DNA of 64,000 nt from a virus. This document shows positions 26,794-49,659 of the stretch, piece by piece. The translations under genes were made by a program, and so were the position numbers. Every line of letters begins with the position of its first letter. The first letter of the stretch is position 1. The stretch spans positions 64,001 to 128,000 of IMG/VR virus record IMGVR_UViG_3300023199_000051. One strand, 5' to 3'. The notes below the pieces were generated by a model. That model made no database searches. It was not told the DNA's origin and saw only the letters and a program-made list of their open reading frames with translations.

Positions 26794-26872
26794 GTGGTGT
26801 CTCCGGTTGAGAGGTGGCCAAGGGGCGTAGAGGAGAGGGGACTCGGTACGAACGCCGAGTCCCTACGCCTCC

Positions 26873-27886
26873 CTACCGAGGCATCGGCAGCTTCTTCGCT
26901 CCGGTCTTGGTCCTGGCCTTCTTCTTCTGCGCGTCGGAGAACTTGCCCCACTTCTTCTTCGCCTTCGTCATGGCGACCTTGTGGGACACGCCCTTCTTCG
27001 CCTTGACAGCCGCCACGTAGTTGTTCCACTGCTTGAGGGCAGGTGGCAGCTTGCGCTTGCCGCTCTTCTTCTTCTTGCGGCTCTTGCTCTTGCTCTTGCC
27101 AGTCAGGCTCGGCAGCGATGTCTTGGACGAGCGGCGCTTCGTTGTCTTGCGCTTGCGGGTCGACTTGCGCTTCGAGGAGCCCTTGACCATGCTTCCGGCT
27201 GCCTTGGCAGCCTTGATGGTCGTGATCTTGCCTCCCTTCTTCGCCCGCTTCCAGGTCGCGCTGACTTGCTTCCGGGTGGCTCCCTTGGCGTACGCTGCCT
27301 TGGAGAAGGCGGCGTAGCGCTTCTGGCCTGCGCTGCGCCCGCTGCGCTTGCTGCTCGACTTGCGCTTCGAGGTCTTCTTCTTGCTGCTCGACTTGCGCTT
27401 CGAGGTCTTCTTCTTCGGCAGGAGGCTCGACGCGGCGCCCTTGCCGCTCTTGTACTTCGCGTACTTCTTGCCGGCCTGCTTCTGGGTGTAGCCGCGCTTG
27501 GCCGCCATGGACCAGAACTTCGGCCACGACATCTTGCGCCCGCTGCCGCTGGTCTTCTTCTTGGACTTGCGCTTGCTGGACTTGCGCTTGCTGGACTTGC
27601 GCTTGCTCTTCGGGATCGACAGCGCCTCCGTCGTTGGCGCGCATCCCTTGACGGGTGTGTACTTGGTCTTGCTGACCACGTTGCCCTTCGCGTCCTTGAT
27701 GACAGCGGTGACGATGTAGTTCTCCGCCAGGAAGAGCTTGATGGACTTGGTCAGCTCGCGCTGGCACGACTTCTGGGACTTGCAGATCTGGGCTTCGTAT
27801 CCCGACCGAATCTCGTAGCCGGTCCGGCTGCCCTTGCTGTTGAATCGTGGGCCAGCGTAGATGGTGGCGGACTTGCGACGGGCCAT
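26873..27886 (-). CDS. Lys/Arg/Ser-rich histone-H1-like basic protein B
   Basis: 337 aa; KRKSS repeats (15-bp x3 at 27563-27607, 33-bp x2 at 27347-27412); GGAGGCACCAC-ATG. Confidence 0.85.
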   Translation of the reverse strand: MARRKSATIYAGPRFNSKGSRTGYEIRSGYEAQICKSQKSCQRELTKSIKLFLAENYIVTAVIKDAKGNVVSKTKYTPVKGCAPTTEALSIPKSKRKSSKRKSSKRKSKKKTSGSGRKMSWPKFWSMAAKRGYTQKQAGKKYAKYKSGKGAASSLLPKKKTSKRKSSSKKKTSKRKSSSKRSGRSAGQKRYAAFSKAAYAKGATRKQVSATWKRAKKGGKITTIKAAKAAGSMVKGSSKRKSTRKRKTTKRRSSKTSLPSLTGKSKSKSRKKKKSGKRKLPPALKQWNNYVAAVKAKKGVSHKVAMTKAKKKWGKFSDAQKKKARTKTGAKKLPMPR

Positions 27887-29931: not shown

Positions 29932-31347
29932 CTACAGGTGCACCTGGTAGCCATCACTGTCGATGAACACTGCTCCTGCTTCGTCGGTAGGATCATCGTA
30001 GTCCATCGCGTACTCGGCATCCTCCTCGATGACCATGTTGTCGTTGCCGTCGAAGCCCTGGACGATGATCGACTCGCCCGGCTTGATGGCAGTCTTGAAG
30101 GGGCCTTCCTTGAGGCGCTTGCGGAGCTTGATCATCTTGGCGACACCAGAGCCAGCCTTGACGGCTAGTGGAATGAGGGCGCCTGATGCATCCTCCTCGA
30201 CCGGGTCGAGCTTCCAGGCAGGCTCCTCAGCGGTCCCCACGTTGGTCACCTTGACCGGGTACCCTCGCTTGACACGCAGCTCGACAGCTGGCGCAAGCTC
30301 CTGCGTGACCCAGGGCTTGCGGAACAGCTTGACGAGCCCTTCCCCGACGCCCCCCGAGTCCTTGATCTTCTCCCCGAGCTTCTGGAACATCTTGCCCTTG
30401 AACAGGCCCTTGCGCTCACTCGTGTTCTTGCTCTGCCGCTTGGACTTCTTCCGAAAGAGGCGCTTGAGGAAGCCGACTGCCTCTTCGTCTTCAGCATCTG
30501 CTGCGATGTAGCCCTCATCGTCAACGTCCAGTCCTCCGATGACGCCGTCCACATAGGTCTCCGGCAGCGTGCCATCCTCTAGGCCCTCGGTGACCAGGTA
30601 CTCCAGCTCTTCGGGTGTGATGGCACCTGCGCGGAACAGAGGCTTGCGATGTTCCTTCTTCCAACCGCGCCACTGCCGACGCAGGCCCTTCCTCTTCTGC
30701 CTGCTCTTGCGCCTCTTCCGTGCCTTGCGGCGCTTCTTACGGAGCCTCTTCCCGCGCCGCTGGAGACGCTTGATCTTCTTGGGCTTGCCGGGCTTGCGTG
30801 CTGGTCTCTGCATGGCACCGCCGCCGCGCGTGGGCCTCTGCATGGCAGCGTCACCACCGCGTGTAGGCCGCTGCATGGCACCATCCATGGAGCGCCGCTG
30901 CTTGAGCTTCTTCGGTTGGTTGGCGCTACGGGACGGCCTCTGCATGGCACCGTCCAGGGATCGCCTCTGGTCGAGCTTCCTCGGGCCCCTCCTACCACGC
31001 GGGGAGTGCGGGCCATCGAGGTGCCTCCCACCGAGGCGCTTGCCGCCAAACCGCCGTCGCTGAGGCCGCTGCATCGCACCACCGTCACGAGGGTCCCTCG
31101 GCACCTCGTAGGTCTCCCAGGCATACTGCTGCTCGCCTGGGATCACCTCTTCGATGATCTCCTCCTCGACGTACTGCGGCTGCCGTGGCTGCGAAGGGTA
31201 GAAGAAGGAAGATCTAGCAGCTGGCTTCGGCTTCGGAGCACATCCATGGAGCTTGCCCGTCTTCAGGAGGCAGTCTCGCTCGGCTTGCGTCTTGGCACGA
31301 GCCAGCATGGCAGGGTTGACTTGGCCGATGGTGATGCGGTCGCTCAT
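29932..31347 (-). CDS. Acidic/basic segmented protein with (G/A)AMQRPxR repeats
   Basis: Start MSDRITIG at 31347; five AMQRP units; K/R block; EDEEAVG-FLKRLFRKK. Confidence 0.8.
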   Translation of the reverse strand: MSDRITIGQVNPAMLARAKTQAERDCLLKTGKLHGCAPKPKPAARSSFFYPSQPRQPQYVEEEIIEEVIPGEQQYAWETYEVPRDPRDGGAMQRPQRRRFGGKRLGGRHLDGPHSPRGRRGPRKLDQRRSLDGAMQRPSRSANQPKKLKQRRSMDGAMQRPTRGGDAAMQRPTRGGGAMQRPARKPGKPKKIKRLQRRGKRLRKKRRKARKRRKSRQKRKGLRRQWRGWKKEHRKPLFRAGAITPEELEYLVTEGLEDGTLPETYVDGVIGGLDVDDEGYIAADAEDEEAVGFLKRLFRKKSKRQSKNTSERKGLFKGKMFQKLGEKIKDSGGVGEGLVKLFRKPWVTQELAPAVELRVKRGYPVKVTNVGTAEEPAWKLDPVEEDASGALIPLAVKAGSGVAKMIKLRKRLKEGPFKTAIKPGESIIVQGFDGNDNMVIEEDAEYAMDYDDPTDEAGAVFIDSDGYQVHL

Positions 31348-31402
31348 GGTGTGGTGCTCTCGGATCGTGGTGTGCGGGCAGGGGTGAGCTGCCATCTACA
31401 AC

Positions 31403-32660: not shown

Positions 32661-33101
32661 TCACGCCCAATAGGGCGATGGCTCGATGCTGGTGAAGCCC
32701 TGCTGGGAGAGCACGTCCTCGGCCACCTGTGGGTTGCCTGTGAACATGACGCCGAGCCTGTCGGGGCCGCTGGCAAGCGCCACCTGGACACCAGCCCCCC
32801 GTGCTGCCATCTCGGCCTTGCTAGCCTTGCCCCACACATCGTTGTGGGTGTCGGGGGGGAACACGACCAGTGCGTGCTCTCCCTCCAGGATCTCGGTCTG
32901 GACAGACGGGACGCCTGCTCGCTTCATGTCGCCTGCGTAGCGGGCAGCTGCGGCACGGGCCGAGCCGAGCGCGCCGACGCCGTCGACCTTGGGGGACGCG
33001 GGGACACCCCCCCGGAACGAGTCGAGCCAGGACAGGCCCGCAATAGCGGCGACTCCGGTGAGGGCAAGGACGACGCCTTGCTCGGTGTTGGTCTTGAACA
33101 T
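32661..33101 (-). CDS. N-terminally membrane-anchored protein (146 aa)
   Basis: CTGGAG SD before ATG 33101; GVVLALTGVAAIAGLSWL. Confidence 0.75.
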   Translation of the reverse strand: MFKTNTEQGVVLALTGVAAIAGLSWLDSFRGGVPASPKVDGVGALGSARAAAARYAGDMKRAGVPSVQTEILEGEHALVVFPPDTHNDVWGKASKAEMAARGAGVQVALASGPDRLGVMFTGNPQVAEDVLSQQGFTSIEPSPYWA

Positions 33102-33120
33102 GGTGAACTCCAGTTGTTGT

Positions 33121-34071
33121 CTACAGGGCGCGGCCCTGAGCACGTCTCTTCTTTGCGTAGTTGAGGTACCAGTCTGGGACGGGCATCCCCAAGCGTACCG
33201 ATGGATCATCGTACACGGGGGCATCGAACTTCGGCCCTCCGAGGTACCCGTCGACACGAACGAGGGCATGGAACAGTCGTCCGCCCTTCTTGCCACCTGC
33301 GAACTGTTCGGGCTTCTCGATGGGGCGCGTGTCCACATGCGCATCGAATCCCTGCAGCATCAGCTCCCCAGCGCGGTAGGCTGCCAAGCCTTCGCAGTCA
33401 TCCTGACCCTGCGACAGGATCTCCTCAGCGTCCCACCACTTCTCGGGGGTGCCTTCTGTGCTGTACTTGACGTTGGTCTTGTACAGCGGAGGGAGCCCCT
33501 GGGTCTCGATACGCCTGGCGTTGTGGCGTGCGATGGCGTCTCCGATCTCCCGAACCGGGAGCGCCTTGTCATCGTCGAGGGACAGGTACATGTACTCGGT
33601 CACGCGGCCCTTGGTCGGCTGCGTGGTTGCACCGACTACGCCAGGACGGTAGTCGGCAGGCCGCCCGAACTGCACAGACGGATCGTCGAGCACGACCGAT
33701 GGGCTGCGCGCTGAGCCACCTACGATGGTGGCCACCTGAGGGACACCACTGACCAGTGCAACGACTGCCTTGGCGCCCTTGGCTCGCTCCTCGGCCGCCC
33801 TCCACGCAGCCAAGGTGCCCGCTGAGGCCTTCCCCGTGCGAAGAGCGGTGAGTGAATCACGCCACACAGGCGCTTCATCATAGGCGAGCGAGACGTCGTC
33901 CAGGTTCGGGACCTTTCCTTCTTGGATGGAACGAACGTTGCGGGTGATGAGCCCGTTCATCACGTCTGCGAGTGCTTTCTCCCCCCCGTGCAGGGTGAGG
34001 AGCACACGCATGCGCCCTGCCTTCTGCGGAAGGGGAGGGAGTGTTCCGATGATGTCTGCTGGATTGGCCAC
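33121..34071 (-). CDS. Transglutaminase-fold cysteine protease (active C-terminal domain plus degenerate N-terminal copy)
   Basis: GQDDCEGLAAYRA (Cys), LFHALV (His), YDDPS (Asp). Confidence 0.75.
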   Translation of the reverse strand: MANPADIIGTLPPLPQKAGRMRVLLTLHGGEKALADVMNGLITRNVRSIQEGKVPNLDDVSLAYDEAPVWRDSLTALRTGKASAGTLAAWRAAEERAKGAKAVVALVSGVPQVATIVGGSARSPSVVLDDPSVQFGRPADYRPGVVGATTQPTKGRVTEYMYLSLDDDKALPVREIGDAIARHNARRIETQGLPPLYKTNVKYSTEGTPEKWWDAEEILSQGQDDCEGLAAYRAGELMLQGFDAHVDTRPIEKPEQFAGGKKGGRLFHALVRVDGYLGGPKFDAPVYDDPSVRLGMPVPDWYLNYAKKRRAQGRAL

Positions 34072-34077
34072 CGCGAT

Positions 34078-34761
34078 CTACCCCTTCACGGCGCCGCCAC
34101 CAAGGGCGCCAATGATGTGACCGCCGGGGTTGTCGTAGGCGAAGCCACGACGACTCTGGCCGGGGAGGCCGCTGCGGAGCAAGCCGCTGTCATAGGGTGC
34201 TGCACCCCACTCGGCCTGTCCAGGGCCAGCAGGGGCCTCCCAGGCCATCGGGCGCTCCTCGTCGAGGTCGGCCGGGTCAAGGCCCAGGTGTGCCAGTTCG
34301 GCATCCAGCTCGCTCTCCAGGTAGTCGAGGTCGTCGTCGCTGAAGTTGTTCTCGGGATCGCTGAAGCGGTGACCGCCGAAGCCCGGAACGCCGAAGGAAC
34401 CGACACCTGCCATGTGGGCGTAGCCGGCCTCGGCATCATCCAGCTCGGCCTCGAAGTCGTCCAGCTCTTCATCGCTCATGTCGCTGAACATGCCGGAGTC
34501 AATGCCGCCTCCACCACCGAGCAGCTCGGCGATGCCTCCACCAAAAGATGGACCGAACAGCGGCAGCCTCACCTTGCCTTCTTCGGGGGCCTCGATGCGC
34601 TTGGCTGCCTTCTCGGCCGTGCTCGTGATGCGGCTGCCGAAGGCCTTGCCAAGGCGTCCGAAGGCGCGGCCGAATGCGCGCTTCTTCTTGCGCTTCTTCT
34701 TGCTCTTCTCCTCTGGCTCCTTGGCGGCGCCGATGAGGCCCATGTGGATAGGGATGTGCAT
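34078..34761 (-). CDS. Basic-N/acidic-C protein, putative virion core or scaffold
   Basis: CAGGAG SD; KSKKKRKKKRAFGRAFGR followed by two SD(D/E)(E/D)LD..E.ELD acidic repeats. Confidence 0.75.
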   Translation of the reverse strand: MHIPIHMGLIGAAKEPEEKSKKKRKKKRAFGRAFGRLGKAFGSRITSTAEKAAKRIEAPEEGKVRLPLFGPSFGGGIAELLGGGGGIDSGMFSDMSDEELDDFEAELDDAEAGYAHMAGVGSFGVPGFGGHRFSDPENNFSDDDLDYLESELDAELAHLGLDPADLDEERPMAWEAPAGPGQAEWGAAPYDSGLLRSGLPGQSRRGFAYDNPGGHIIGALGGGAVKG

Positions 34762-34788
34762 GTCGATCTCCTGGGGGTGAGTAGTGGC

Positions 34789-35535
34789 CTACCCGGTGCA
34801 CTCGTAGAGGACGATGTGGGTCTGGGGGGCGGCCCCAGTGGGACTGAGTGTGTAGTCCAGGTTCGGGATCCGCTTGATCTCCCCCGAACGTGGGACAGTG
34901 AGGACTTCATCGTATGCGACGACGCCGCCTGGCCCATAGCCTCGGATGCGAGGTGGCGGCGAGCCAGCTCCTGGGCTGAACACCTCGAAGGTGTCGCAGA
35001 AGGGAGGCACCGACAGATCGGTCTCCCCGGTAAGTGCATCGACGCCGCCAAAGAACTGCTGGTCCTTCCAGTCCGAGAGGCCTGCTGTGAACTCATCGAT
35101 CTGGTAGTGGGCTTCCAGCTCGAAGTTGTTGGGATTGAGCGCCAGTACGCGGATGCTGCGACCTGGTGCGTAGATGACGGCTGACTGGTTCGTGGTCGTG
35201 AAGCATCGGCGTACGATGCGCTCGTTCTCCATCTTCGCGAGCACAGTGAAGCGCAGTCCCGCACCCGATCGAGTGGGGTCATTGCCTTCCGGGTCCTGAC
35301 AGCTGAGTGTGACCTTCCAGCGGCGGATGATGTTGATCTCGCCGTTGTCGACCAGGACGACAGGGTCCACGAGCCCTGATCCGGGAGGAGAAGCAGCAAA
35401 CCCAGCACGTGCAGGGACAGCCTTGAAGTCTCCGATGCGGTAGCCACGGCCCATGGCCGGATCCCATCGGGAGTAGGGCTGCAGACCACCGTGCTCGATC
35501 TCGTTGACCAGTCGTCGGTCTTCACGGCTGTGCAC
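34789..35535 (-). CDS. Beta-rich protein, candidate minor capsid/penton
   Basis: Alternating beta-strand pattern, VPPFCDTFEV; start uncertain (35535 GTG or 35454 ATG). Confidence 0.6.
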   Translation of the reverse strand: MHSREDRRLVNEIEHGGLQPYSRWDPAMGRGYRIGDFKAVPARAGFAASPPGSGLVDPVVLVDNGEINIIRRWKVTLSCQDPEGNDPTRSGAGLRFTVLAKMENERIVRRCFTTTNQSAVIYAPGRSIRVLALNPNNFELEAHYQIDEFTAGLSDWKDQQFFGGVDALTGETDLSVPPFCDTFEVFSPGAGSPPPRIRGYGPGGVVAYDEVLTVPRSGEIKRIPNLDYTLSPTGAAPQTHIVLYECTG

Positions 35536-35759
35536 GGAGGCGCTTCTACCTGCACGACTACGGTGACTCAAAACGCACCTCGGCCCCTGGGACCCCGTGG
35601 TGAAGTGGGAACCAAGTCCCCACGTCACGGGGCCGCAGGGGCCAGGCGTGCGCACCGATCGGTGCGCACAGTGTGACAGCGGAAGCTATCACGGTAGCGC
35701 CGTAGCTACGGGGCAGCGGTTGCTACCCCACAGGCGTAACCCTCGGTAGAGGGCCGCGC

Positions 35760-36476
35760 CTAGTAGCCGTAGCCGGGAGCCGAGAAGCCCTGCGTCGCGG
35801 CGGTCAGGAGCATGTGCTCCATCCAGCGCTGCATCGCGTAGGGGTTCAGCTCGTCGGCGATGATGCCGCCGCTGACCGTCCGCGGGGCACCCGTGGCGAT
35901 GTTCGCCAGGTTGACCCGGAAGGTCTGGCCGGTCAGCGCGAGACGCCGCCCGAACGAGATCCCGAAGCGGGTGCTGTCGCTGGCGAACATCGACAAGGGG
36001 GTTCCCTTCGAACCCACGTTGACCGGCAAGCCGGCGACCGTGATGCCCGTCACGAGAACTTCGGCGGGGACGTCGGCGTCGAGCACCAGGCTCTTCCCCC
36101 ACAGGTTCCGGTTGATGGTGTCGTCGATGTAGCCAGTCGACGAGGCTGGGATCTCGACACTGCCGAGGCCGTTGTACTGGTTCTCCTGGATCATCCCGGC
36201 CGCGGCTGCGGCCTGGTAGACGTCTGCGGGTGCTGCTCCTTGATTGGGCATCGGTTCCTCCTGGGGGGGTGGTGCGAGGCGGGCCTGACGGCGCTCCAGA
36301 CGGTCGATCTTGCGAGAGGTGCGGCGGAGCCGCGCCTTCTTGCCGAACGGCCACAGGAGACCAGACTCGTCTTCTTCGTCGTCGTAGTCCATCTCTTCCA
36401 CGTCGGCGGGGTCCACGTAGACCTCGCCGGTCGCTTCGTCGAGCTTCACGGGGACTGCGCCAATGACAGTGGACAT
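35760..36476 (-). CDS. Candidate single-jelly-roll capsid protein with acidic/basic N-terminal extension
   Basis: About 110-aa all-beta-looking core GLGSVEIPASSTGYI..LVL..VLVTGITVAG..PLSMF..GQTFRVNLANI..RTVSGGIIAD; long leader with GGAG SD and a cUUCGg hairpin at 36559-36574. Confidence 0.6.
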   Translation of the reverse strand: MSTVIGAVPVKLDEATGEVYVDPADVEEMDYDDEEDESGLLWPFGKKARLRRTSRKIDRLERRQARLAPPPQEEPMPNQGAAPADVYQAAAAAGMIQENQYNGLGSVEIPASSTGYIDDTINRNLWGKSLVLDADVPAEVLVTGITVAGLPVNVGSKGTPLSMFASDSTRFGISFGRRLALTGQTFRVNLANIATGAPRTVSGGIIADELNPYAMQRWMEHMLLTAATQGFSAPGYGY

Positions 36477-36653
36477 GGAAAACTCCGGTTTTCTTGAGTG
36501 GTGCTGGGTGGTGGTGTGCGCTGATTCGCCAGAGCGGCGTCTCAGGGCGCCCTGCTTCGAGCCCCGAAGGGCTCTCGGCGGGGTGTCAGCGGCTCAAAGG
36601 CTGCTGAACGTGTGGTGAACTGGTGAAAGATCTTGCCCTTGCGGGCAGCTGCT

Positions 36654-37328
36654 CTACAGAGCGAGCTGACGGCGGTAGCGGGGTCGGACGGCGTACAGGG
36701 GGACCTGGACCATCTGGGGCTCCTGCTGGGCGTCGTCGTACCCGAGCTTGTGCTGGAGGCGTCCGCGACGGCTGCGCAGGCGGGACAGCTTGCGCCCGAT
36801 GCGCTGGATGCGCTGGCGACGGCCGAACAGGCCTGACTCGTCCTCCTCCTCCTCATCGTCGTAGTCCTCGTCGAGGGCGCCGAGCACGACACCCTGGGAG
36901 GTGGCTGCGCTGGCAGCCGGGGCGCTCTCGCCCTTCTCGCCCCACTTGGCGCCCATCTCGTAGCTGTACTCGTGGACCCAGGAGCCCAGGGTACCGAGGG
37001 AGACGTTCACCGCGTGGCTCGACCACTTGGACTTCGGCCACCAGAGACCGGCGACCAGGCCGGCGACACCGGTGACGATCCGCGCGTCGGTCTTGATGAC
37101 GGGGATCTTGAGGTCCTTGCCCTGCGCTGCTCGCCATGCGGACGCACCGGACCAGACGGCGCCGGAGCCGAGCAGCTCGCCTGCGACGACTGCGCTCTCC
37201 TTGGCGGCCTTGGTGCGCGCCTTGGCGACGGTGGACCGCGACCGCGATCGGCCGCTGGACTTGCGCTTGCGCTTGCTCTTGCGCTTGCGAGGGCGAGCCT
37301 TGGATGCAGATGGTGGGGTGATGGCCAT
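36654..37328 (-). CDS. Basic membrane protein (Arg/Lys/Ser N-terminus, hydrophobic hairpin, acidic-then-basic C-terminus)
   Basis: GGAGG SD; RKRKSKRKRKSSGRSRSRS; IVTGVAGLVAGLWW; DEEEEDESG-LFGRRQRIQR. Confidence 0.8.
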   Translation of the reverse strand: MAITPPSASKARPRKRKSKRKRKSSGRSRSRSTVAKARTKAAKESAVVAGELLGSGAVWSGASAWRAAQGKDLKIPVIKTDARIVTGVAGLVAGLWWPKSKWSSHAVNVSLGTLGSWVHEYSYEMGAKWGEKGESAPAASAATSQGVVLGALDEDYDDEEEEDESGLFGRRQRIQRIGRKLSRLRSRRGRLQHKLGYDDAQQEPQMVQVPLYAVRPRYRRQLAL

Positions 37329-37357
37329 GGAAGCGACCTCCGTGTTTCGATGCCTAA

Positions 37358-37386
37358 AGCGTATCGAAGGGTGACAGGTTGTGCAA
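37358..37386 (-). promoter_or_regulatory. sigma70-type promoter heading the putative capsid operon
   Basis: TTGCAC-17 nt-TACGCT. Confidence 0.6.
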
Positions 37387-37650
37387 GCAGGAAAAAGAAG
37401 TTTCCAGGCCCACTATGGGCCTTATGTGCCCCTACTCACAAGTAGGTCCGGCGAAAGTGCCGGGAGACCCTATATGGGCCAGTTGATGTCGAACCCCTTG
37501 CCGAACCGTGGGAGGCCCGTTCGGGATCCTGAACGCCATGGTTCGTCTGGACGCCGAAGCATCGACGAGAGGGCGTATGAAGCTCTGGACTGCTGCAGGA
37601 TTGGCCGCGGGTATGCGAGTCCTTCCTGGAGCATGCGGTCGAGGGGTCGC

Positions 37651-39585
37651 TCAAAGCGCCCTCCGCGACACCGCGCCGAGGTTGTCCTGGAACGCCCCCG
37701 TGTCGGCGTGAGAAGCAGGATCAGCATCTGAGTAGCCTCCGGTCTGGACGCCCATCAGGCGAGGGCCATAGCTGGAAGGGGCGCCGAAGCTCTGCGAGCT
37801 TCCGTAGCTCTGCGGGCTTCCGTAGCCGCTCTGCCCGTACCGGGCCTCGGCCTCGCGGGCCTTGTGCTGAGCGGTGATGGCCTGCAAGAAGGCCACCGTC
37901 TTTGCCTGCTGTCCCAGGTTGGGATCATAGGAGGGTTGCCGTTCCCGGATGATGGTTCGGCGGATGACCTGAGGCCGGCCTCGACCGATGGGAATGCGGC
38001 GACGCCTGCGCACCATGCGACGACGCCTGCGCGCCATGCGGGTAGGCGGCCTCGACGAGCGCACTGCTGGGGGAGGAGCTACACGCCGCGGACGCCTGGG
38101 CTTGCCCTGGGCCTTTGCGAGCAGGCCTCGGATCTGGCGGGCGAGGGTCTGCAGGCGTGCCTTCTTCTTGATGCGGCGCACTCTCTGCAGCTTGCGCTCG
38201 ATGCGGTCGAGTGCCTTCTCCAGCTTGCCCACGAGCTTGGGCTTGATGCGTCCCTTGCGGCGGAGCTGGCGCTCGGCACGCTTGATCATCTTGCCGGGAC
38301 CGAACAGGGTGATGGCCCGTCCGCCCCGCGGTGCCGATGCCTCTTCACCTGCACGGTCGAGCAGCGACTTGATCTGTGCTGCCAGACGCTGCATCTTCTG
38401 ACGCTTCTTCGGCCGGCGGGCGTTCTTGGCCTTGAAGGACACCCGGCCGTAGATGCGCTGGATGCGCGCAAGCAGCTTGGGCTTGATGCGTCCCTTGCGA
38501 CGGAGCTGGCGCTCGGCACGCCGGAGGGCCTTCTTCTTGTTGGGAGCCAGGAGGGCGAGGACCCCACCGCCGAGGAGGAAAGGAAGGATGCCGATCTCGT
38601 CGAGGTCGTCGTCGCCCTCGTAGGTGTAGCCCATCTCTTCGAGCCTGGCCTTGAGACGGCGGATGCGCTTGAGCATGCGGCCGATACGGCGCCTGATGCT
38701 GCGTGCACGCTTGGCCGGTGTCCGCTTGAACAGCCTGCCCAGCTTCTTGAACAGCCCGACCGTGTCGTCGTAGCCAGCCGTGGAGACATCGGGGTCGTCG
38801 TCGGGGATCGTGACTGCGACACCAGCCGGGTCGTCGGTGAAGTAGAAGAGGTACCAGCCACCCTTCGAGGGCTCGACCCGGTAGAAGGTGTTGCGGTTGC
38901 GCGCGATCTTGCGAGCCTTCAGCGCGGCCTCGATGCGGTCGTTCTCGCTGGGGAGGTGAAGCATCCATCCATCACCGGTTGCTTCGCCGGCCGCGGCCCA
39001 GTGCTTGCCGACCGGGATGCGGCTGTCTGCAGCCCACTTCGCGAGGGTGCCCGACGACTTGACGACGGCCTTGCCTTGCTTGCTCCCCCTGATGACGGCC
39101 TTCCTGCCGATGGCGAGCTTCGGCTTCTTGATCCTGATCTTGGGGAGCTTGAGCTTGAACTTGCCGACTTCGTGCTCCACCATCGCGCCGACCAGGATGG
39201 GGTTGCCATCAGCGGAGAAGCCAGCATCGCGGGCAGCCGCAGTCTGGTAGCTGTGCGGCTCCCAAGCTGAACCACCCCAGTTGGGGCCTTCCCACGGATC
39301 CTGAGCGGGCGCATCGTCACCGAACCCTGCCATGACCGGATTTCCATCTCGGGAAGACGCACGGCTCTCTGCAGCGTTGGACAGGACGTTCGGTTCCCAG
39401 GCCGAGCCGGCCCAGATGGGATCCGACCAAGGGTCAGAGAAGACGGCACCGCTCATGTCGTAGTCGGCGTCGTCGAAGGCGCCCACCATGAGCCCTCCGC
39501 TCTCTACGTCCGGCTCCGTCTTGCGGAGTACGTGCTTCTTGTGAGCAGGGGCAGGGCACTTCGGGGTCTTTTCGTGGGTCGCCAA
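37651..39585 (-). CDS. Modular acidic/Arg-rich protein, candidate core polyprotein
   Basis: GGAGG before TTG; duplicated DPW..W(A/G)GSAWEP..DGNP unit and duplicated RAERQLRRKGRIKPKL unit. Confidence 0.85.
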   Translation of the reverse strand: MATHEKTPKCPAPAHKKHVLRKTEPDVESGGLMVGAFDDADYDMSGAVFSDPWSDPIWAGSAWEPNVLSNAAESRASSRDGNPVMAGFGDDAPAQDPWEGPNWGGSAWEPHSYQTAAARDAGFSADGNPILVGAMVEHEVGKFKLKLPKIRIKKPKLAIGRKAVIRGSKQGKAVVKSSGTLAKWAADSRIPVGKHWAAAGEATGDGWMLHLPSENDRIEAALKARKIARNRNTFYRVEPSKGGWYLFYFTDDPAGVAVTIPDDDPDVSTAGYDDTVGLFKKLGRLFKRTPAKRARSIRRRIGRMLKRIRRLKARLEEMGYTYEGDDDLDEIGILPFLLGGGVLALLAPNKKKALRRAERQLRRKGRIKPKLLARIQRIYGRVSFKAKNARRPKKRQKMQRLAAQIKSLLDRAGEEASAPRGGRAITLFGPGKMIKRAERQLRRKGRIKPKLVGKLEKALDRIERKLQRVRRIKKKARLQTLARQIRGLLAKAQGKPRRPRRVAPPPAVRSSRPPTRMARRRRRMVRRRRRIPIGRGRPQVIRRTIIRERQPSYDPNLGQQAKTVAFLQAITAQHKAREAEARYGQSGYGSPQSYGSSQSFGAPSSYGPRLMGVQTGGYSDADPASHADTGAFQDNLGAVSRRAL

Positions 39586-39722
39586 GGAGGCCTCCAGAGG
39601 GCAGCGCGCTTGCTGGGAGGCTATCGGGGGCCGTTAGGGCGCGTCCAGTCCCAAAAGGCTCATACAAACCCGTGTATGGCTTAGGATGCCCTGAACATCG
39701 ACACCCTTGTCTGGACTCTATG

Positions 39723-40166
39723 TCACCCTGCTCCATCCGCAGGCCACGACAGCGACACGCACTCGGGCTTCTTGGTCTTCTCGCTCGGACTGATGATCCT
39801 TGATGCCTTCTGCGTGTCGTCCCTGGTCACTTCTACTTGGTCCGGTGGAGCCCCCAGCCGACGGGCTGTCGCTTCCATTACCTGACGGAACAGGGACAGC
39901 ACTCTCGCGGGCGCGTTGGGGGCAAGGATTCCAGTGATGGTCTTGTGCGAGGGCTTGGGCTTCGTGATCGCCGCACCATCTCTCAGTCTCGCATGCGGGC
40001 GCACGATCATGTACCCCGTGTAGGTGAACATCCCGTAGGGCGTCGGGACCATGTTCACCCCTTCAGGCTTGCTGTAGTTGTCCACCCACTGAAACGATCT
40101 CTTGAGCTTGCTGGCCAGCTCTCTGGAGAGGCGCTGTACGATCTCACGGTCTGTGCGCTCACTCAC
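39723..40166 (-). CDS. Hypothetical protein (147 aa)
   Basis: GTGA overlap with upstream stop. Confidence 0.7.
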   Translation of the reverse strand: MSERTDREIVQRLSRELASKLKRSFQWVDNYSKPEGVNMVPTPYGMFTYTGYMIVRPHARLRDGAAITKPKPSHKTITGILAPNAPARVLSLFRQVMEATARRLGAPPDQVEVTRDDTQKASRIISPSEKTKKPECVSLSWPADGAG

Positions 40167-41884
40167 GATTCGCCCTCGCTCTTCTCGTTGTCCTCGTCCG
40201 AGGAGGTGTCCGAGCTGCTTGGGGGCTCATCATCCTCTCCATCAAGGGCGCCCTCTTCCAGGCGTGCTTCGGCCTCTTGGTAGATTGCTCGCTGCTTCGC
40301 CAGCTCTTCTCGCGTGATCGTACCCGTCTCGACGTCATGTTCTTCGACTGCATCCGCAAGCTCCTCGGTGAGGCGGATGGCGAAGTTGCGGTCTGACTTC
40401 ACAGTAGCATTGAGGACTGCACGACGTTGCTCTGGTGCCATGAAGCGCAGGAGCACTGCAGCTTGGCTGGGATCGATGTTGGCGGGGTTGAAACCACCAC
40501 CGGGGTGCTGTGGTGGAGCCTGTTGCGGTGGAGCCTGCTGCGGTGGAGCCTGTTGCGGTGGAGCCTGTTGCGGTGAAGCCTGCTGCTGCGCTGTGCGGTG
40601 AGCCCCACCCCCAGATGGCGGGGCGCCCGGCACCCCATTCCACCCCGGCCGGCCTCCTCCATTAGCAGGCTTGTGCTGCTGTGGAGGCGGCTGCTGCTGT
40701 TGTCCGCCTCCCCCCTCCTCGGACAGTCCCTTCAGGACCTTGTCAATCACCATGTCCGCAGCAGCACCAACGCGGTCCTGCACCCCCTCGGGCAGCGCAC
40801 CGTCATCGCCCGTGCTCAACGCGCGGCGGCGACGTGCTGTTCGGCGTGCTGCATCTGCAGCTTCTCGGAGCCGCTTCGCTTCTGCCTCGTTCGCCTGGCG
40901 TTCTTGCTCGCGGGCCTGGCGCTCAGCTTGCAGCTGCTCGGCGAGTGCTTGGTTGTCCTGCTGCGTGCGGTTGGCCTCGGACTCCAGGCGGTCCAGCCGT
41001 GCTCGCAGCTCGCGGTGCTGAGCATCGGCCTTTGCATTGGCGTGGTTGACCTGCAGCTTCGCAATCCGATCTGAGGACTTGTCCAGGGATTCGCGGTAGT
41101 TCTCACCCTCTGCTTTGCTCGCGCGCACGGACTCGCGATGGACATTGATCACTTCGCTCATCAGGCCGTCGAGACGGTTCACCAGAAAGCGGTTCTCGCC
41201 GAGGATGGTGTTGATGGTGTGGAGGTACACCTGATCACGTGCGCTGATCCCCTTGTCGATGGCTTCCGGGTCGATGTGAAGCCCAGATCCTGGGATGGAC
41301 CCCTCCCGTGCGGGACTTGTGAAGGAGGGGGACGCCAAAGTTCGTGGCCCTGGGCCCCGAGCACCAGTAGCCGCTCCAGGCACCGGGGGAGGGTTGTTCC
41401 CGTACTGCTGCAGCGGGCTTGGTGAGGGCGCGCGTGTCATGTTGCGCGTGAAGTTCTGCACGCACGTGCCCGCGCGCTTCCATGTCACCTCCTCGACAAG
41501 GTCGTCCTCGTCAAAGTCATCCTCGAAGTCGGGAATGGACAGGTCGTCGTCATCCCCGTCGTCCTCGTCCTCCTCATCGATCGAGGGCGCCTTGAGGATT
41601 GTCGCATCAAGCTTCACCGTGATCGAAGTGCGGTCAGCATCCACGCTGTTGAGCAGCTCCGCGAGAGTCCGGTTGACCATCCGAATCGCGTCTTCTTCCT
41701 CATAGTTGAAGACCTCCACGCGGTACTTGGTCAGTGGCAGGTTCTGCATCGACCCCGCGTAGAAGCGAATCGCGTGCGGGAAGTCTGCTTCTTCGACCTC
41801 CTCTTCGGTGGTCAGTCCTCGGGGGTACAGGGTGCGAACCCAGCGGTTCACATCCTGCCAGTTGCCGTTCCAGTCATCGAGCAT
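40163..41884 (-). CDS. Coiled-coil protein with QQAPP repeats and acidic tracts
   Basis: GGAGTGG SD before ATG 41884 (MLDDWNG); 15-bp repeat x5 at 40512-40586. Confidence 0.8.
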   Translation of the reverse strand: MLDDWNGNWQDVNRWVRTLYPRGLTTEEEVEEADFPHAIRFYAGSMQNLPLTKYRVEVFNYEEEDAIRMVNRTLAELLNSVDADRTSITVKLDATILKAPSIDEEDEDDGDDDDLSIPDFEDDFDEDDLVEEVTWKRAGTCVQNFTRNMTRAPSPSPLQQYGNNPPPVPGAATGARGPGPRTLASPSFTSPAREGSIPGSGLHIDPEAIDKGISARDQVYLHTINTILGENRFLVNRLDGLMSEVINVHRESVRASKAEGENYRESLDKSSDRIAKLQVNHANAKADAQHRELRARLDRLESEANRTQQDNQALAEQLQAERQAREQERQANEAEAKRLREAADAARRTARRRRALSTGDDGALPEGVQDRVGAAADMVIDKVLKGLSEEGGGGQQQQPPPQQHKPANGGGRPGWNGVPGAPPSGGGAHRTAQQQASPQQAPPQQAPPQQAPPQQAPPQHPGGGFNPANIDPSQAAVLLRFMAPEQRRAVLNATVKSDRNFAIRLTEELADAVEEHDVETGTITREELAKQRAIYQEAEARLEEGALDGEDDEPPSSSDTSSDEDNEKSEGES

Positions 41885-41960
41885 GTGTAGGCCACTCCAG
41901 GTGTCAGGGAGCATAAGCCTCCAGCTACGTGTGTTCAAGGCCCATAGCACGTTCCGCCAC

Positions 41961-42600
41961 TGGAACAATCAGCAGCAAATGCCGCTGATTGTCCCAGGCC
42001 CAAAGGGGGGGTGTCGCTTGTACAAGCGGTAGGCACAAATCCCGTTTTCTACATGGAACAATCAGCACCTGGATGCGCCTATTGTTCCTGCTATAGGTTT
42101 AATCGGACCCTTTGGCCGAAGGGTGCTCTCCGGTGCCGACCCTTTGGCCCTAAGACCCCCCCTGCGGCAAAAAAACCACGTGACCCTTGGGCCAAAGGGT
42201 ATGCGGAAAAAGTGCCACAGGGGTTTCTCGCCTACTGAGTACAACGTCCCAGAACAAAGGGGGTTTGTATCGGGACGTTTATGATCGGGACCCTCAACCA
42301 CCCCCTCAACCCTGTGCTAAATGACACACAGACCCCCCCTTTGGCCCTAAGACCCCCCTGCGGCAAAAAAACCACGTGACCCTTTGCCCAAAAGGTCCAC
42401 CTCGCTTGTACAAGCGACCCCCACCCTTTGGCCGAAGGGTCCACCTCCAAGATCACACTCAGGCCCAAAGGTCGATGGTCCAGGATCTGGCGCCCCCCAC
42501 CCTTTGGCCGAAGGGCAGTCTCCGTGATCCGATCCTCTTGATCCTGCTACAGGTGGTGAGGGTGAGATGTGAACCGATCCGCTACTTGCCTTTTGGACCT
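41961..42600. repeat. Repeat-rich intergenic switch region, candidate replication origin
   Basis: About 58-bp direct repeats at 42141-42199 and 42338-42395; palindrome CGCTTGTACAAGCG at 42015 and 42403; about 10 CCCTTTGGCC(G/C)-type motifs; TGGAACAATCAGCA x2. Confidence 0.75.
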
Positions 42601-44715: not shown

Positions 44716-46299
44716 ATGGCCAAGCAAGACGGTCTTCGCAGCGACATCGTACGGGTACACTCTCACGGGGTAGACGACTTGCCAGTGGGCTGTGGTCCCG
44801 ACAAGGTCCTGGGGTGGGAGTGTGTTCAGGACGGCGGACTGTTCCTGGCCCCCAATGAGTTCTACATCGACACGACTGCGCCAGACGCTGCCGGCTCTCG
44901 CCACGTCTCCACCGTAGCCATCGCCCTGTCCCGCGCCGACTCCCTGGTCGGGGCAGCCACCGACCTGGTGTTCCGCTTCCGAGAGGGCCAGACTCACACC
45001 TGGGCCGCGGCAGCCACCATCCCCATCGACCGCAACATCTACTGCCTCGCGGCTGGTCAGCGTCAGGGCGAGAACGATGTACCAGCAGTGGGAGTCCTCA
45101 CCTTCGATGCAGCTGGGGTCACCTTCCCAGCCGCTGCTGCTGACCGCGCTTTCGGTGTCCGCGGCCTGCGCGTCTCTGGAGATGTCACCTTCGAGGAGGA
45201 CTGGAACGCGAAGTTCGAGCGGTGCACCTTTGCACTCCTCACTGCTACCCTCACCGACAATGGCAATGCGGACCCGCCTACCTTGACCATCGCGGAGTGC
45301 ACCGACACGGGCACGAGCAGTGCAACACAGCACCCCCTGGAGGTCCGCGCTACGGTGACCGGCGGTGGTATCGGCACAGTCAGCCTCAACCGGTCCGAGC
45401 TGTCTGCGCAGATCACAGCAGCAGGCCACGATGCCCCATGGTTCCAGCTAGCAGGCTGCAGGTTGGTCATCGACAACTGTTTCCTGAGCACGAACCACGA
45501 CTCTGGCTCGGACATCGGGGCTATCGACTCGGCAAGCGCAGCGTCCGATGTCTCCTTCGTCACCCGCGGTACCACGTGGGCGGCGACTGCCGACTCTGGC
45601 GGGCAGGGTCTCTTCAGCTCCTCTGGGGTCGGCGCCATCGGCATTACGCTGGTTGGCCTGGAGATCGCCAGCGCACACACTATTCCCATTGCTGGCGGCA
45701 AGGAACCTGTCGACTTTGAGGCCGGCGCTGTGACACTCACACCGCTGGTCAGTGCAGACGTCAAGTACACCATCTCTGAGGGGGCTACGCCACGGGCGTT
45801 CCCAACCGACATTCCTCTAGGCACTGAACTCCTCTACGTTCCCTCTGGGGCTGTCAACCTGCAAGGACCAGGGCCTCAGTCAGCAGGGCTGCTCACAGGC
45901 GACATCGTCACAGCTAGCCTCTTCCAGCACGACTTCGGTCAGTGGTGGGATGCTTCGACTACGGATGCCACACCGACGCTGATGACCAGCGAGACGATAG
46001 GGCCTCCGGGCCACAACAGCATCAACACCTGCGGGTACGTGGCCAAGTTCACTGGACATGATGGTGCCGGAAGTCAGTTCACAGCTGAGGTACGCGGCAC
46101 GGTGGAGGTCGGTGGAGCCGGCGCGCTCACCAAGGTGGGTGTCGAGAGTATCGACACCATCCATGACACCATCGGAGGGGGCGGCCTTGTCGGTGTCACC
46201 GTAGCTGTGTCAGGAGGTACGACCCTGGTGCCTCAAGTGACAGGTGTTGCAGCCACCACCATCGCATGGCGCTGCTACATGACCCTTCTGGAGACCTGA
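44716..46299 (+). CDS. Beta-rich spike/fibre-like structural protein
   Basis: GGGAG SD; Thr/Ala/Gly-rich beta pattern; C-terminal TTDAT...VTG.A.T.I.W domain. Confidence 0.65.
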   Translation: MAKQDGLRSDIVRVHSHGVDDLPVGCGPDKVLGWECVQDGGLFLAPNEFYIDTTAPDAAGSRHVSTVAIALSRADSLVGAATDLVFRFREGQTHTWAAAATIPIDRNIYCLAAGQRQGENDVPAVGVLTFDAAGVTFPAAAADRAFGVRGLRVSGDVTFEEDWNAKFERCTFALLTATLTDNGNADPPTLTIAECTDTGTSSATQHPLEVRATVTGGGIGTVSLNRSELSAQITAAGHDAPWFQLAGCRLVIDNCFLSTNHDSGSDIGAIDSASAASDVSFVTRGTTWAATADSGGQGLFSSSGVGAIGITLVGLEIASAHTIPIAGGKEPVDFEAGAVTLTPLVSADVKYTISEGATPRAFPTDIPLGTELLYVPSGAVNLQGPGPQSAGLLTGDIVTASLFQHDFGQWWDASTTDATPTLMTSETIGPPGHNSINTCGYVAKFTGHDGAGSQFTAEVRGTVEVGGAGALTKVGVESIDTIHDTIGGGGLVGVTVAVSGGTTLVPQVTGVAATTIAWRCYMTLLET

Positions 46300-49509: not shown

Positions 49510-49607
49510 ATGACAAGAAAGTCGATGGAAGGCAGTTGGTGACGGGGATCGTGGTGATCCTCACCCCAGACTTATCCGGCTGGAGGCGGCTGCACAGGAT
49601 CTCCACA

Positions 49608-49636
49608 TTGACACATGACACCGTGTCTTCTATACC
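49608..49636 (+). promoter_or_regulatory. sigma70-type promoter for the helicase operon
   Basis: TTGACA-17 nt-TATACC; overlapped by TGACACATGACA. Confidence 0.65.
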
Positions 49637-49659
49637 CGTAGTGGACCTGGACGACGACT

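Follow-up and report, generated by a model that had tools for sequence, protein, structure and literature searches.

Jelly-roll-like proteins and a candidate maturation protease encoded in a 178-kb viral genome lacking recognizable packaging genes

Gene organization of the region

The stretch of 64,000 nucleotides analyzed here (the window) forms the middle of an IMG/VR virus record of 178,164 bp, the ends of which overlap by 126 bp; the 178-kb genome is probably complete. The stretch was recovered in four DNA sequencing runs of one study, with no RNA run listed. Three co-oriented ORFs were found on the minus strand at positions 36654–37328 (g094, 224 aa), 35760–36476 (g092, 238 aa) and 34789–35655, and their codon-position GC was typical of real genes (GC3 of 0.88, 0.87, and 0.73 in gene order; GC2 about 0.5). 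The third ORF is present, but it does not start at 35655; the public gene call (P0044) starts at 35454 (MGRGYRIG) and yields a protein of 221 aa (g091; 34789–35454). An FDPA motif just upstream of the called start was also conserved among homologues, and translation may therefore begin a few codons before 35454.

A non-coding gap of 322 nt (37329–37650, minus strand), the longest in the block, precedes g094 and is the likeliest site of a putative operon promoter. The promoter reported earlier ahead of the operon was not recovered, as a consensus scan of 33000–40500 gave no sigma-70-like site against 0.8 expected. A GGAGG sequence is located 8 nt ahead of the ATG of g094 at 37328. The N-terminus of the g094 product is rich in Lys and Arg, two Gly/Ala-rich stretches show weak hydrophobicity, and the C-terminal module combines an acidic run with ESG-LF and an Arg-rich helix, a motif shared with g092. 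It had been described as a two-TM protein, but the Kyte-Doolittle means of the two stretches peaked at 1.1–1.3 over 19 residues compared to the usual 1.6. Relatives carry ORFs of 278 and 268 aa, matched to g094 by position alone, upstream of their g092 homologues.

A stabilized leader had also been proposed in front of the g092 gene; its folding was no better than that of shuffled sequences (z −1.6). The spacer between g092 and g091 (35455–35759, minus strand) contains several perfect hairpins (inverted repeats I1, I6, and I8), among them a 22-nt palindrome at 35648–35669. The minimum free energy of 35450–35765 was −168.9 kcal/mol compared to a shuffle mean of −135.8 (z −5.3; equalled by 0 of 100 shuffles), and an Rfam search over 33000–40500, spacer included, gave no match. 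We infer that the spacer acts as a partial terminator or as a stabilizer of the mRNA 3′ end, which would give a dose of g092 above that of g091.

Downstream of g091, on the same strand, g090 (34078–34761; 227 aa) encodes a protein with a basic N-terminus and a Gly-rich acidic body that is probably disordered. The protein is a possible scaffold or core component, and a 227-aa ORF was found in its place in relatives. Upstream of the gap, g095 (37651–39585, minus strand; 644 aa, 136 K+R) encodes repeated Arg/Lys-rich helices with a hydrophobic segment at residues 328–346, and relatives have ORFs of 779 and 635 aa at this position; judged by its sequence, g095 is proposed to be a core or DNA-binding protein. 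An acidic, coiled-coil, Gln/Pro-rich ORF of 601 aa (40163–41968, minus strand) might, by composition, be a scaffolding protein. Two further minus-strand genes at 25363–27886 encode proteins of protamine- or histone-H1-like composition, g081 (476 aa; 130 K+R, GC3 0.84) and g082 (337 aa; 110 K+R vs. 7 D+E, GC3 0.92), which are proposed to condense the genome. No match in Pfam and PHROGs was obtained for the block proteins, including g094, g090, and the 601-aa product; g081 had no match of its own, and g082 was scanned as part of the pooled A3 set.

The same co-oriented run of genes includes g079 (17436–24989, minus strand; 2517 aa), a DarB-like methyltransferase-helicase polyvalent protein that matched phrog_11801 (4e-152), phrog_1685 (5e-114), and the DarB-like phrog_10089 (5e-61), in agreement with the DarB-like cargo noted earlier; it is probably virion cargo. 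Several small TM proteins are encoded downstream of this giant gene, and Gly-zipper membrane proteins are encoded elsewhere, for example at 48477–50408 of the genome. A haloarchaeal host was considered and rejected, as g079, the one large protein checked, is charge balanced (358 D+E vs. 332 K+R in 2517 aa) and not strongly acidic; the many very basic block proteins and the GGAGG ribosome-binding sites further disfavored such a host.

The claim of tRNA genes was borne out by a count of 22 in the window. Besides, the genome encodes a family A polymerase, Sak4, a primase, ThyX, MazG, and a Q-like antiterminator, together with an integrase, RadC, DUF932, a weak RP-C match, ParB-containing polyvalent proteins and a CRISPR-Cas system. 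Inteins or homing endonucleases were found within other genes of the genome. Conjugation ATPases, a relaxase and a partition ATPase were not found in it.

Structure models of g092 and g091

The N-terminus of g092 contains a conserved peptide and an acidic run that ends at an almost invariant Gly39 (at least 90% conserved), followed by an Arg-rich helix at residues 46–67. The AlphaFold model (pLDDT 79.5) shows a beta core spanning about 115 aa (residues 96–210), which confirms the all-beta core of about 110 aa predicted previously. This core was modeled as a single eight-strand jelly roll between helices 83–92 and 212–229. The model matched capsid proteins from PBCV-1 (8.7), faustovirus (8.1), HHIV-2 (8.0), EhV (8.0), and HCIV-1 (7.1), and its best structural matches also covered the flanking helices of the vertical capsid barrel (PRD1 P3, 126–129 residues). 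Jelly-roll sandwiches are also common outside capsids, and the non-viral jelly rolls of GOLD, PHM, the furin P domain, fucosidase, and PirA scored above the capsid matches or at most about one Z unit below them, differences of about one Z unit being treated as ties by the structure tool. This tie counts against the capsid reading.

Profiles of the g092 and g089 families showed no match to PDB sequences, and the g092 and g091 families were found to be unrelated by hhalign (probability 0.1). A distant g092 "homologue" carrying PF09950 (P0043) was rejected as uninformative, since it looks like a chimera in which the PF09950 part takes the place of the g092-type sequence after residue ~150 of the alignment. 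Proteins with two or three tandem g092-type barrels were also found, and one of them bears an RRDLL twin-arginine-like signal, so g092-type domains can serve in exported surface proteins as well.

The g091 product was all-beta in its model (pLDDT 86.4, pTM 0.52), consistent with the second beta-rich protein anticipated at this locus, and comprised tandem jelly-roll-like sandwiches at residues ~5–122 and 127–221. The pTM of 0.52 leaves the packing of the two domains loosely defined. The best Foldseek matches were PRD1 P3 (E 4.6e-5) and then the STIV coat/MCP (1.3e-4). Over the whole chain, superposition on double jelly-roll coats gave an rmsd of about 20 Å and TM scores of 0.2–0.3 (12–20 Å for two-domain alignments), so that g091 as a whole superposes on none of them, a point against the capsid reading. 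A rigid structural search returned no double jelly-roll coat, and no sphaerolipovirus structure was among the best 50 matches. Thus, when the models were compared with single and double jelly-roll capsid proteins, as had been suggested, both proteins were jelly-roll-like, but g091 was not rigidly a double jelly roll.

Conservation, GC3, and the attenuating hairpins downstream of g092 suggest that g092 is more abundant than g091. On its model, g092 would be the abundant subunit and major protein of a shell, since its GC3 is high and the structured spacer downstream is expected to lower read-through. The modeled g091 would then be a less abundant partner, either a vertex/turret protein or a second capsomer component.

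Protease candidate, relatives, and searches for packaging genes

The C-terminal half of g089 (33121–34071, minus strand; 316 aa) is predicted to be a transglutaminase-fold Cys-His-Asp enzyme. Residues C226, H268, and D288 were invariant in an alignment of 26 sequences, and the triad order fits that on the papain-like core of the Transglut_core/Peptidase_C93 clan, enzyme activity being predicted. The sequence itself reached no significant Pfam match. Its neighbors in the ESM Atlas, by features (0.91–0.94) and by structure, carry Transglut_core or Peptidase_C93, and structural neighbors with Transglut_core in 96–100% of members aligned to residues ~150–308. Homologues of g089 fell into 73 clusters. 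Eight distinct acidic-x-G-hydrophobic sites were found in the block, three of them in g095. Counted as overlapping pattern matches there were 19, about 10-fold the density in other proteins counted alike and reached in 0 of 500 shuffles, for a motif that was defined only after being seen. From its sequence, g089 is proposed as the candidate maturation protease of the module.

Comparison with a 92%-complete relative of 108 kb showed that g089, g092, and g091 were the best-conserved proteins common to both genomes, with 48% (E 5e-76), 47%, and 41% identity, respectively, compared to 25–33% for replication proteins. Gene order was kept in relatives. Dozens of metagenomic relatives were found, with contigs of up to 187 kb. 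A g092 relative was not found among 185,579 species genomes, which therefore gave neither a host nor a prophage setting. A phage collection searched at the nucleotide and protein level, using the region and g092 as queries, gave no match, and a literature search on large tailless or jelly-roll phages returned nothing relevant. The genes around distant g092 relatives were all ORFans or encoded giant SNF2 or NUDIX proteins, and no neighbor was annotated as structural.

The first-pass annotation had recognized no terminase, portal, HK97 or tail genes, and no terminase, portal, HK97 capsid or whole tail gene was detected when the search was widened to all 178 kb of the genome and to the relative of 108 kb. 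Six-frame searches of both genomes for the large terminase (PF03237, PF03354, and phrog_2) matched helicase P-loops only, while phrog_2 detected the terminase in 13 of 14 control genomes. Six-frame searches for the HK97 capsid (PF05065) and portal (PF04860) gave no match, although such proteins can diverge beyond the reach of HMMs. The matches listed in the proteome-wide Pfam and PHROG scans comprised only replication, nucleotide, defense, and hydrolase families, with no terminase, capsid or portal family, and for the ~170 ORFs no sheath, tube or baseplate-wedge family was among the matches listed. Whole tail proteins (tube, sheath or tape measure, baseplate) gave no match. The beta-helix protein g018 matched phrog_1980 "tail fiber protein" over residues 116–363 at no better than 2e-5, a domain of 110 aa in g059 matched both "tail fiber" and "head decoration" families, and matches to "baseplate hub" and "minor tail" spanned enzyme-like domains of 80 aa.

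The FtsK/A32-type packaging ATPase expected of a jelly-roll virus was likewise absent from six-frame searches of both genomes with PF01580 and PF04665 at E-values up to 10, two models that were detected in 14 of 14 controls. To our knowledge, all characterized double jelly-roll and sphaerolipovirus-type viruses possess this ATPase, so its absence counts against the jelly-roll-virus reading. All Walker-A proteins were assigned (ComM-like, SNF2, RecD/Dda, Sak4, an AAA_23-type P-loop ATPase, UvrD, and a Cas helicase). A packaging ATPase candidate at 17768–19027 of the genome was rejected as a ComM/Mg-chelatase-type AAA+ protein. Single-sequence PDB searches with six large ORFans returned nothing structural and only a short TAL-repeat-like stretch. 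The structure models cover g092 and g091, and many ORFans of 400–860 aa were covered by sequence searches alone, so an HK97 capsid, portal or terminase set may still be hidden among them.

Comparison with known viruses and possible interpretations

Among the closest known systems are PRD1 and PR772 (Tectiviridae; P3 and P31) and Bamfordvirae in general, such as PM2 (P2) and STIV (B345/A223). The proposed shell genes adjoin each other and a cysteine protease candidate is encoded close by, which recalls adenovirus- or polinton-type modules. Compared to Bamfordvirae, in which the coat protein packs two vertical jelly rolls side by side and forms a pseudo-hexameric trimer, however, no sequence similarity was found, g091 is only 221 aa long and could not be rigidly superposed on a double jelly roll, the FtsK/A32 ATPase is missing, and the genome is 6–18 times the size of those of bacterial members. 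The polymerase belongs to family A, whereas theirs is a protein-primed family B enzyme, and g089 has a predicted transglutaminase fold instead of the adenain/Ulp1 fold. In Bamfordvirae, the penton consists of one jelly roll, and its gene lies close to that of the coat protein; g092 was modeled as a single jelly roll and adjoins g091, but is suggested to be the commoner of the two proteins. As for the lipid membrane that lines the shell in Bamfordvirae, the indirect signs here are some small TM proteins of the block, the hydrophobic stretches of g094 being weak.

The order of a one-barrel and a two-domain gene, and their sizes, resemble those in Sphaerolipoviridae and relatives (Helvetiavirae; HHIV-2, SH1, HCIV-1, and P23-77), which have two single jelly-roll coats with upright barrels and in which a small one-barrel gene is followed by that of a larger two-domain (barrel-plus-tower) coat protein. 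The structural scores against these viruses were, however, no better than for non-viral jelly rolls, g091 was unmatched among the best 50, the packaging ATPase is absent here, and their genomes are 16–31 kb. The large genome, the tRNA array, the giant DarB-like protein, and a short putative cleavage motif shared by many block proteins with a protease candidate adjoining are reminiscent of jumbo tailed phages that process internal proteins and carry DarB-type cargo (inner body of phiKZ, internal proteins of T4, Dar system of P1), but no terminase, portal, HK97 capsid, sheath or tube was detected here. The prohead protease of T4, HK97, and phiKZ is a serine protease, whereas g089 is a Cys-His-Asp transglutaminase-fold candidate. 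Very Arg/Lys-rich proteins encoded beside shell genes, and precursor-type acidic and basic modules adjoining a cysteine protease candidate, recall adenovirus pVII and baculovirus P6.9; these are viruses of eukaryotes, the likeness is one of composition, and adenovirus keeps the IVa2 packaging ATPase.

The leading reading is that of a large, apparently tailless virus with jelly-roll virion proteins, as both models were jelly-roll-like and no tailed-phage hallmark was detected; neither of the two outcomes named beforehand as refuting the proposal was thus obtained. This part of the original proposal stands, whereas a PRD1/PM2-like membrane-containing phage does not follow from the evidence. In its fuller form, to which we give somewhat less than an even chance, the stretch would encode the morphogenesis core of a large bacterial virus that does without the HK97/terminase/portal machinery; very basic proteins encoded nearby would condense its DNA, and g089 would cut the precursors. 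Protamine-like proteins and the Arg-rich helices of g092, g094, and g095 would condense the DNA, and acidic propeptides would mask these basic helices until g089 cleaves the acidic-x-Gly-hydrophobic sites on the C-terminal side of their conserved Gly. The shell, with g092 as main subunit and g091 as the rarer vertex, turret or second capsomer partner, would assemble round DNA already condensed rather than be filled by a motor. No bacterial virus known to us encloses 178 kb of DNA without a motor, which counts against such an assembly.

A broader claim, which we regard as rather doubtful, is that of a widespread lineage of bacterial viruses of 110–190 kb with particles of single and tandem jelly rolls, no motor, protamine-like condensation, and propeptides cut by a transglutaminase-fold protease. 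On the models, the jelly rolls of this lineage would be structurally nearest to PRD1-type coat barrels, with no sequence relatives among known viruses.

The strongest competitor, in our view unlikely, is a tailed jumbo phage in which the HK97 capsid, portal, and terminase are too diverged, or too interrupted by inteins or introns, for recognition by Pfam and PHROG. In such a phage, g092 and g091 would be accessory beta-sandwich virion proteins (decoration/cement, baseplate or fiber) or internal-body proteins, processed by the head protease as in phiKZ or T4. The gene content (22 tRNAs, DarB-like cargo, family A polymerase, Sak4, primase, ThyX, and MazG) is typical of such a phage, and inteins or homing endonucleases do interrupt other genes. 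The matches of g018 and g059 to tail-fiber and decoration families would also fit a tailed virion, and ESM Atlas look-alikes of g092 and g089 mostly belong to clusters labeled Uroviricota, though automatically; both observations count against the non-tailed reading. However, the large terminase is the most recognizable tailed-phage protein and none was found by three broad models in both genomes, every P-loop ATPase is already assigned, and no sheath, tube, baseplate-wedge, portal or capsid was among the matches listed. In addition, an accessory protein would not be expected to outdo the replication core in conservation.

It is quite improbable that the virus is non-icosahedral or pleomorphic, for instance with a nucleoprotein core wrapped by a coat or membrane, an architecture known from several families of archaeal viruses, and with g092 and g091 as coat or spike proteins instead of capsomers that form a lattice. 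The lack of any packaging ATPase, the unusual load of protamine-like proteins in the block, the small TM and Gly-zipper membrane proteins, and the tandem g092-type fusions, one with the RRDLL signal, would agree with such a particle. Against this, the best g092 matches include the flanking helices of the vertical capsid barrel, nothing in the sequence marks an envelope, and we know of no pleomorphic bacterial virus beyond the 12-kb Plasmaviridae. A large plasmid-like element misfiled as viral, with the block encoding a secreted or surface complex or serving some other role outside virions, is very improbable: the integrase, RadC, DUF932, RP-C, ParB-type, and CRISPR-Cas genes are common on plasmids or conjugative elements, the 126-bp overlap is compatible with a circular assembly and no virion hallmark was recognized by sequence, but conjugation ATPases, a relaxase and a partition ATPase were not found, the tRNA array, ThyX, MazG, Sak4, phage-type polymerase and primase, and Q-like antiterminator indicate a lytic-type virus, no relative was found among the species genomes, and jelly-roll proteins plus a protease as most conserved genes form the pattern of a virion module.

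All characterized bacterial viruses above ~30 kb known to us are tailed, with an HK97 capsid, portal, and terminase, and jelly-roll viruses of bacteria are small. If jelly-roll virion proteins do build a large non-tailed particle, the size range of non-tailed bacterial viruses would be widened several-fold, the large jelly-roll viruses known from eukaryotes would have an equivalent in bacteria, and the enclosure of a 178-kb genome in the absence of a motor would call for an explanation; marker-based classifiers could then file such genomes without any recognized structural gene. A lineage without a motor would represent a new virus group of high rank, and no large jelly-roll virus of bacteria lacking a motor would have been known before it. 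Should an HK97 set be hidden in the genome instead, the genome would belong to a very divergent new clade of jumbo phages with a conserved jelly-roll virion pair and an unusual protease. The relatives in public metagenomes are distinct from one another, so the lineage is not a one-off and the question can be tested with existing samples.

Genome content and hallmark genes

The IMG/VR record was a single sequence of 178,164 bp (63% G+C) with an exact 126-bp overlap between its ends, which IMG/VR classes as direct terminal repeats (CheckV completeness 100); the window corresponds to bases 64001–128000. Real genes were recognised by a GC3 of about 0.8 against a GC2 of about 0.5, and a crude whole-genome list of 159 ORFs and 13 hand-added ones was based on this contrast. 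The genome was compared with a 108-kb IMG/VR relative (92% complete by CheckV), the sequence of which was reassembled from six loci.

A Pfam and PHROGs scan covering essentially the whole proteome showed that the right arm encodes replication functions (family A polymerase, UvrD, primase, Sak4, exonuclease and methylases) and type I-C Cas genes. An integrase, ThyX, MazG, RadC and DndC/PAPS-reductase-like proteins are encoded on the left arm, together with a ComM-type AAA+ protein and domains of cell-wall hydrolases. Matches labelled 'tail' or 'baseplate' were mostly to domains of about 80–110 aa, the exception being a 500-aa right-handed beta-helix protein (genome 13297–14799, locus L001; Beta_helix, 1e-21) that also matched phrog_1980, 'tail fiber protein', over residues 116–363 (2e-5). 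Its gene is adjoined by that of a tyrosine integrase (genome 11905–12897, L001), which is kept in the 108-kb relative at 32% identity. The ComM/Mg-chelatase-type protein (genome 17768–19027, L001; Mg_chelatase 3e-41, ChlI 5e-27), close to the DndC/PAPS-reductase-like genes, is the sole AAA+ ATPase of the genome. A 530-aa ORF (genome 59068–60660, L004:5068–6660, minus strand) matched TAL-effector repeat proteins (Hax3, E about 3e-6) over one 28-residue stretch only; either chance or a solitary TAL-like repeat may explain this match. Four small ORFs that are conserved lie at genome 57131–58953.

Six-frame searches of the genome with models for terminase (PF03237, PF03354, phrog_2), HK97 capsid (PF05065), portal (PF04860) and FtsK/A32-type ATPase (PF01580, PF04665) returned helicase P-loops only; control genomes gave positive signals in the same searches. 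After a Walker-A scan across every coding-like frame, no ATPase was left unassigned, and the hallmark-gene searches were likewise negative in the 108-kb relative. The first-pass annotation, which proposed a tailless, membrane-containing jelly-roll phage, had recognised no terminase, portal, HK97 capsid or tail gene; the six-frame searches likewise detected no terminase, portal or HK97 capsid gene in the whole genome or the relative, nor did the proteome scan of the genome. The FtsK/A32-type packaging ATPase that it expected was not detected in either genome by PF01580, PF04665 or Walker-A scans.

The g094, g092 and g091 genes

None of ten block proteins matched Pfam or PHROGs at E ≤0.01, and nothing similar to the block was found in searches of the phage collection. 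Despite this, the block genes are real and conserved: their order is preserved in relatives, and the synteny is the same in the 108-kb relative. The three co-oriented minus-strand genes of the first-pass annotation (g094, g092 and g091) were present. The g094 gene (window 36654–37328, minus strand) encodes 224 aa with a Lys/Arg-rich N-terminus, two Gly/Ala-rich stretches and a C-terminal module composed of an acidic run, ESG-LF and an Arg-rich helix. It had been described as a basic protein with two transmembrane segments; the basic part holds for the N-terminus, but the Gly/Ala-rich stretches are weakly hydrophobic (Kyte-Doolittle means of 1.1–1.3 in 19-residue windows) and do not support the transmembrane part.

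The 322-nt gap above g094 is the likeliest promoter site, and both g094 and g092 have GGAGG or GGAG 8–9 nt ahead of the ATG. The promoter reported ahead of the operon was not recovered, as a consensus scan of window 33000–40500 gave no sigma-70 match. Nor was the stabilised leader reported before g092, since this RNA folded no better than shuffles (z -1.6). The spacer of about 300 nt between g092 and g091 (window 35450–35765, minus strand) showed exceptional structure (-168.9 kcal/mol, z -5.3), ranking among the most structured stretches of this analysis, with a perfect 22-nt palindrome at 35648–35669 and a hairpin with 18-nt arms at 35582–35643. It had no match in an Rfam search; attenuation, mRNA stabilisation or protein binding are possible functions.

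The g092 gene (window 35760–36476, minus strand) encodes 238 aa, and its N-terminal module (acidic run, ESG-LL, basic helix) is of the same type as the C-terminal module of g094. Homologues formed 43 clusters with 42–73% identity on contigs of up to 163 kb, and 78 clusters at the 50% clustering level in an exhaustive profile search. In the predicted model (pLDDT 79.5), short N-terminal strands are followed by a helix at 46–67 formed by the Arg-rich segment, and an eight-strand sandwich at 96–210, in agreement with the all-beta core of about 110 aa noticed earlier, is flanked by helices at 83–92 and 212–229. Foldseek matches in the PDB were weak (best E 2.5e-3), every one being a jelly-roll domain. 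Because structural-alignment differences below 1 Z were counted as ties, g092 is, as modelled, called a jelly roll that tilts only slightly toward the capsid type. One protein, P0145 (579 aa, L026:2018–3757), contains three tandem g092-type barrels, and another, P0172 (371 aa), contains two behind an RRDLL twin-arginine-like signal; thus, two- and three-copy tandem versions of the domain exist as natural fusions. A metagenomic protein, P0043 (175 aa), resembles the g092 family until 'TIAGLPLN' and PF09950-type sequence thereafter, and is probably from a chimeric contig.

In the public gene call, g091 encodes 221 aa from 35454 to 34789 on the minus strand. A start at 35655 was rejected in favour of this call; FDPA directly ahead of the Met is kept among homologues (17 clusters), and the true start may lie slightly upstream of 35454. 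The first-pass annotation had called this second protein beta-rich, and the model (pLDDT 86.4, pTM 0.52) was all-beta, with two sandwiches at about 5–122 and 127–221. The best Foldseek match was PRD1 P3 (4.6e-5), followed by the STIV coat protein (1.3e-4), XepA, the SID1 ectodomain and Vip3, all with two sandwiches and with rmsd values close to 20 Å. Rigid alignment gave good matches at single-domain level (PirA 10.6, SIDT 9.3, GOLD 9.2), and on these two results g091 is read from its model as a tandem jelly-roll protein. Profile-profile comparison of the g092 and g091 families gave no sequence kinship.

g089 and a putative cleavage motif

Homologues of g089 formed 73 clusters on contigs of up to 187 kb. 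In an alignment of 26 sequences D224-D225-C226-E227-G228, H268 and D288-D289-P290-S291 were invariant, and the ESM Atlas neighbours, both by language-model features (0.91–0.94) and by structure (residues ~150–308), were Transglut_core or Peptidase_C93 proteins. The g089 product is a predicted Cys-His-Asp enzyme of transglutaminase fold; its gene position and an acidic-Gly motif suggest a role as a protease.

The motif consists of an acidic run, a small residue, Gly and two hydrophobic residues, often with an Arg/Lys-rich helix after it, and the Gly of ESG is at least 90% conserved across the g092 family. It was found in the proteins encoded at window 29932–31395, 35760–36476, 36654–37328 and 37651–39585 and at genome 48477–50408, and may be a protease site or a targeting signal. 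The pattern acidic-x-[SAVIT]-G-hydrophobic occurred at 8 distinct sites in the 3.5 kaa of block proteins, with 19 overlapping matches compared with 24 in the remaining 46.6 kaa, a density about ten times higher; none of 500 shuffles reached the count of the block. We regard these statistics as weak support for cleavage, since the motif was defined after being noticed. In the protein at window 29932–31395 (g085, 487 aa), at least five DGAMQRP(x)R repeats also precede an extremely basic run, KKIKRLQRRGKRLRKKRRKARKRRKSRQKRK.

Proposed role and other encoded proteins

The conserved operon combines jelly-roll proteins with a Cys-His-Asp enzyme, amid genes for a DarB-like giant protein and the very basic proteins g081 (130 K+R in 476 aa), g082 (110 K+R in 337 aa), g085 and g095. 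We read it as a candidate particle-building module of a large, non-HK97 bacterial virus. The major shell subunit would be g092, because of its GC3 (0.87), the highest conservation and the structured spacer behind the gene; this spacer would lower read-through into g091, the putative less abundant vertex or second capsomer protein. DNA condensation would fall to the basic proteins, together with Arg-rich helices in g092, g094 and g095; acidic propeptides would neutralise these helices until cleavage by g089.

Several points count against this reading. The look-alikes in the Atlas carry mostly tailed-phage labels, which are automatic. The foremost alternative, though unlikely, is a highly diverged tailed jumbo phage whose HK97 set is hidden; the six-frame searches gave no sign of such a set. 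To our knowledge, the prokaryotic jelly-roll viruses known so far have an A32-type ATPase, and we know of no bacterial precedent for enclosing 178 kb without a motor; a virus with another architecture is less probable still. Jelly rolls are also frequent in non-viral proteins, and the capsid matches were not clearly separated from non-viral ones. Between the two genomes, identity was 48% for g089, 47% for g092 and 41% for g091 versus 25–33% for replication proteins. All three thus exceed every replication protein in conservation, a pattern typical of virion modules. A plasmid-like element misfiled as a virus is the least probable explanation.

The nearest known systems are the PRD1-type coat barrel and STIV vertex protein by fold, the sphaerolipoviruses with their two coat proteins by gene arrangement, and, by genome content, jumbo phages that carry DarB cargo and whose internal proteins are processed. 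Jelly-roll virus groups are recognised by a packaging ATPase and tailed phages by a terminase; because neither was found here, the virus was assigned to neither. That the stretch marks a truly new virus lineage without a motor is less likely than not.

A fibre-like, Thr/Gly/Ala-rich protein of 527 aa (window 44716–46299) and a 146-aa ORF (window 46773–47213), both without Pfam or PHROG match, share a similar C-terminal domain of about 70 aa (...IAWRCYM.. and ..IKWRASM..), and from this likeness could be paralogues that form receptor-binding or spike tips. In a very acidic, secreted-looking protein of 355 aa (window 54556–55623), a pooled scan recognised metal-binding Cys/Asp repeats of the MopE type (PF11617, 4e-24), which together with the Atlas neighbours give only hints of a Myxococcota-like host.
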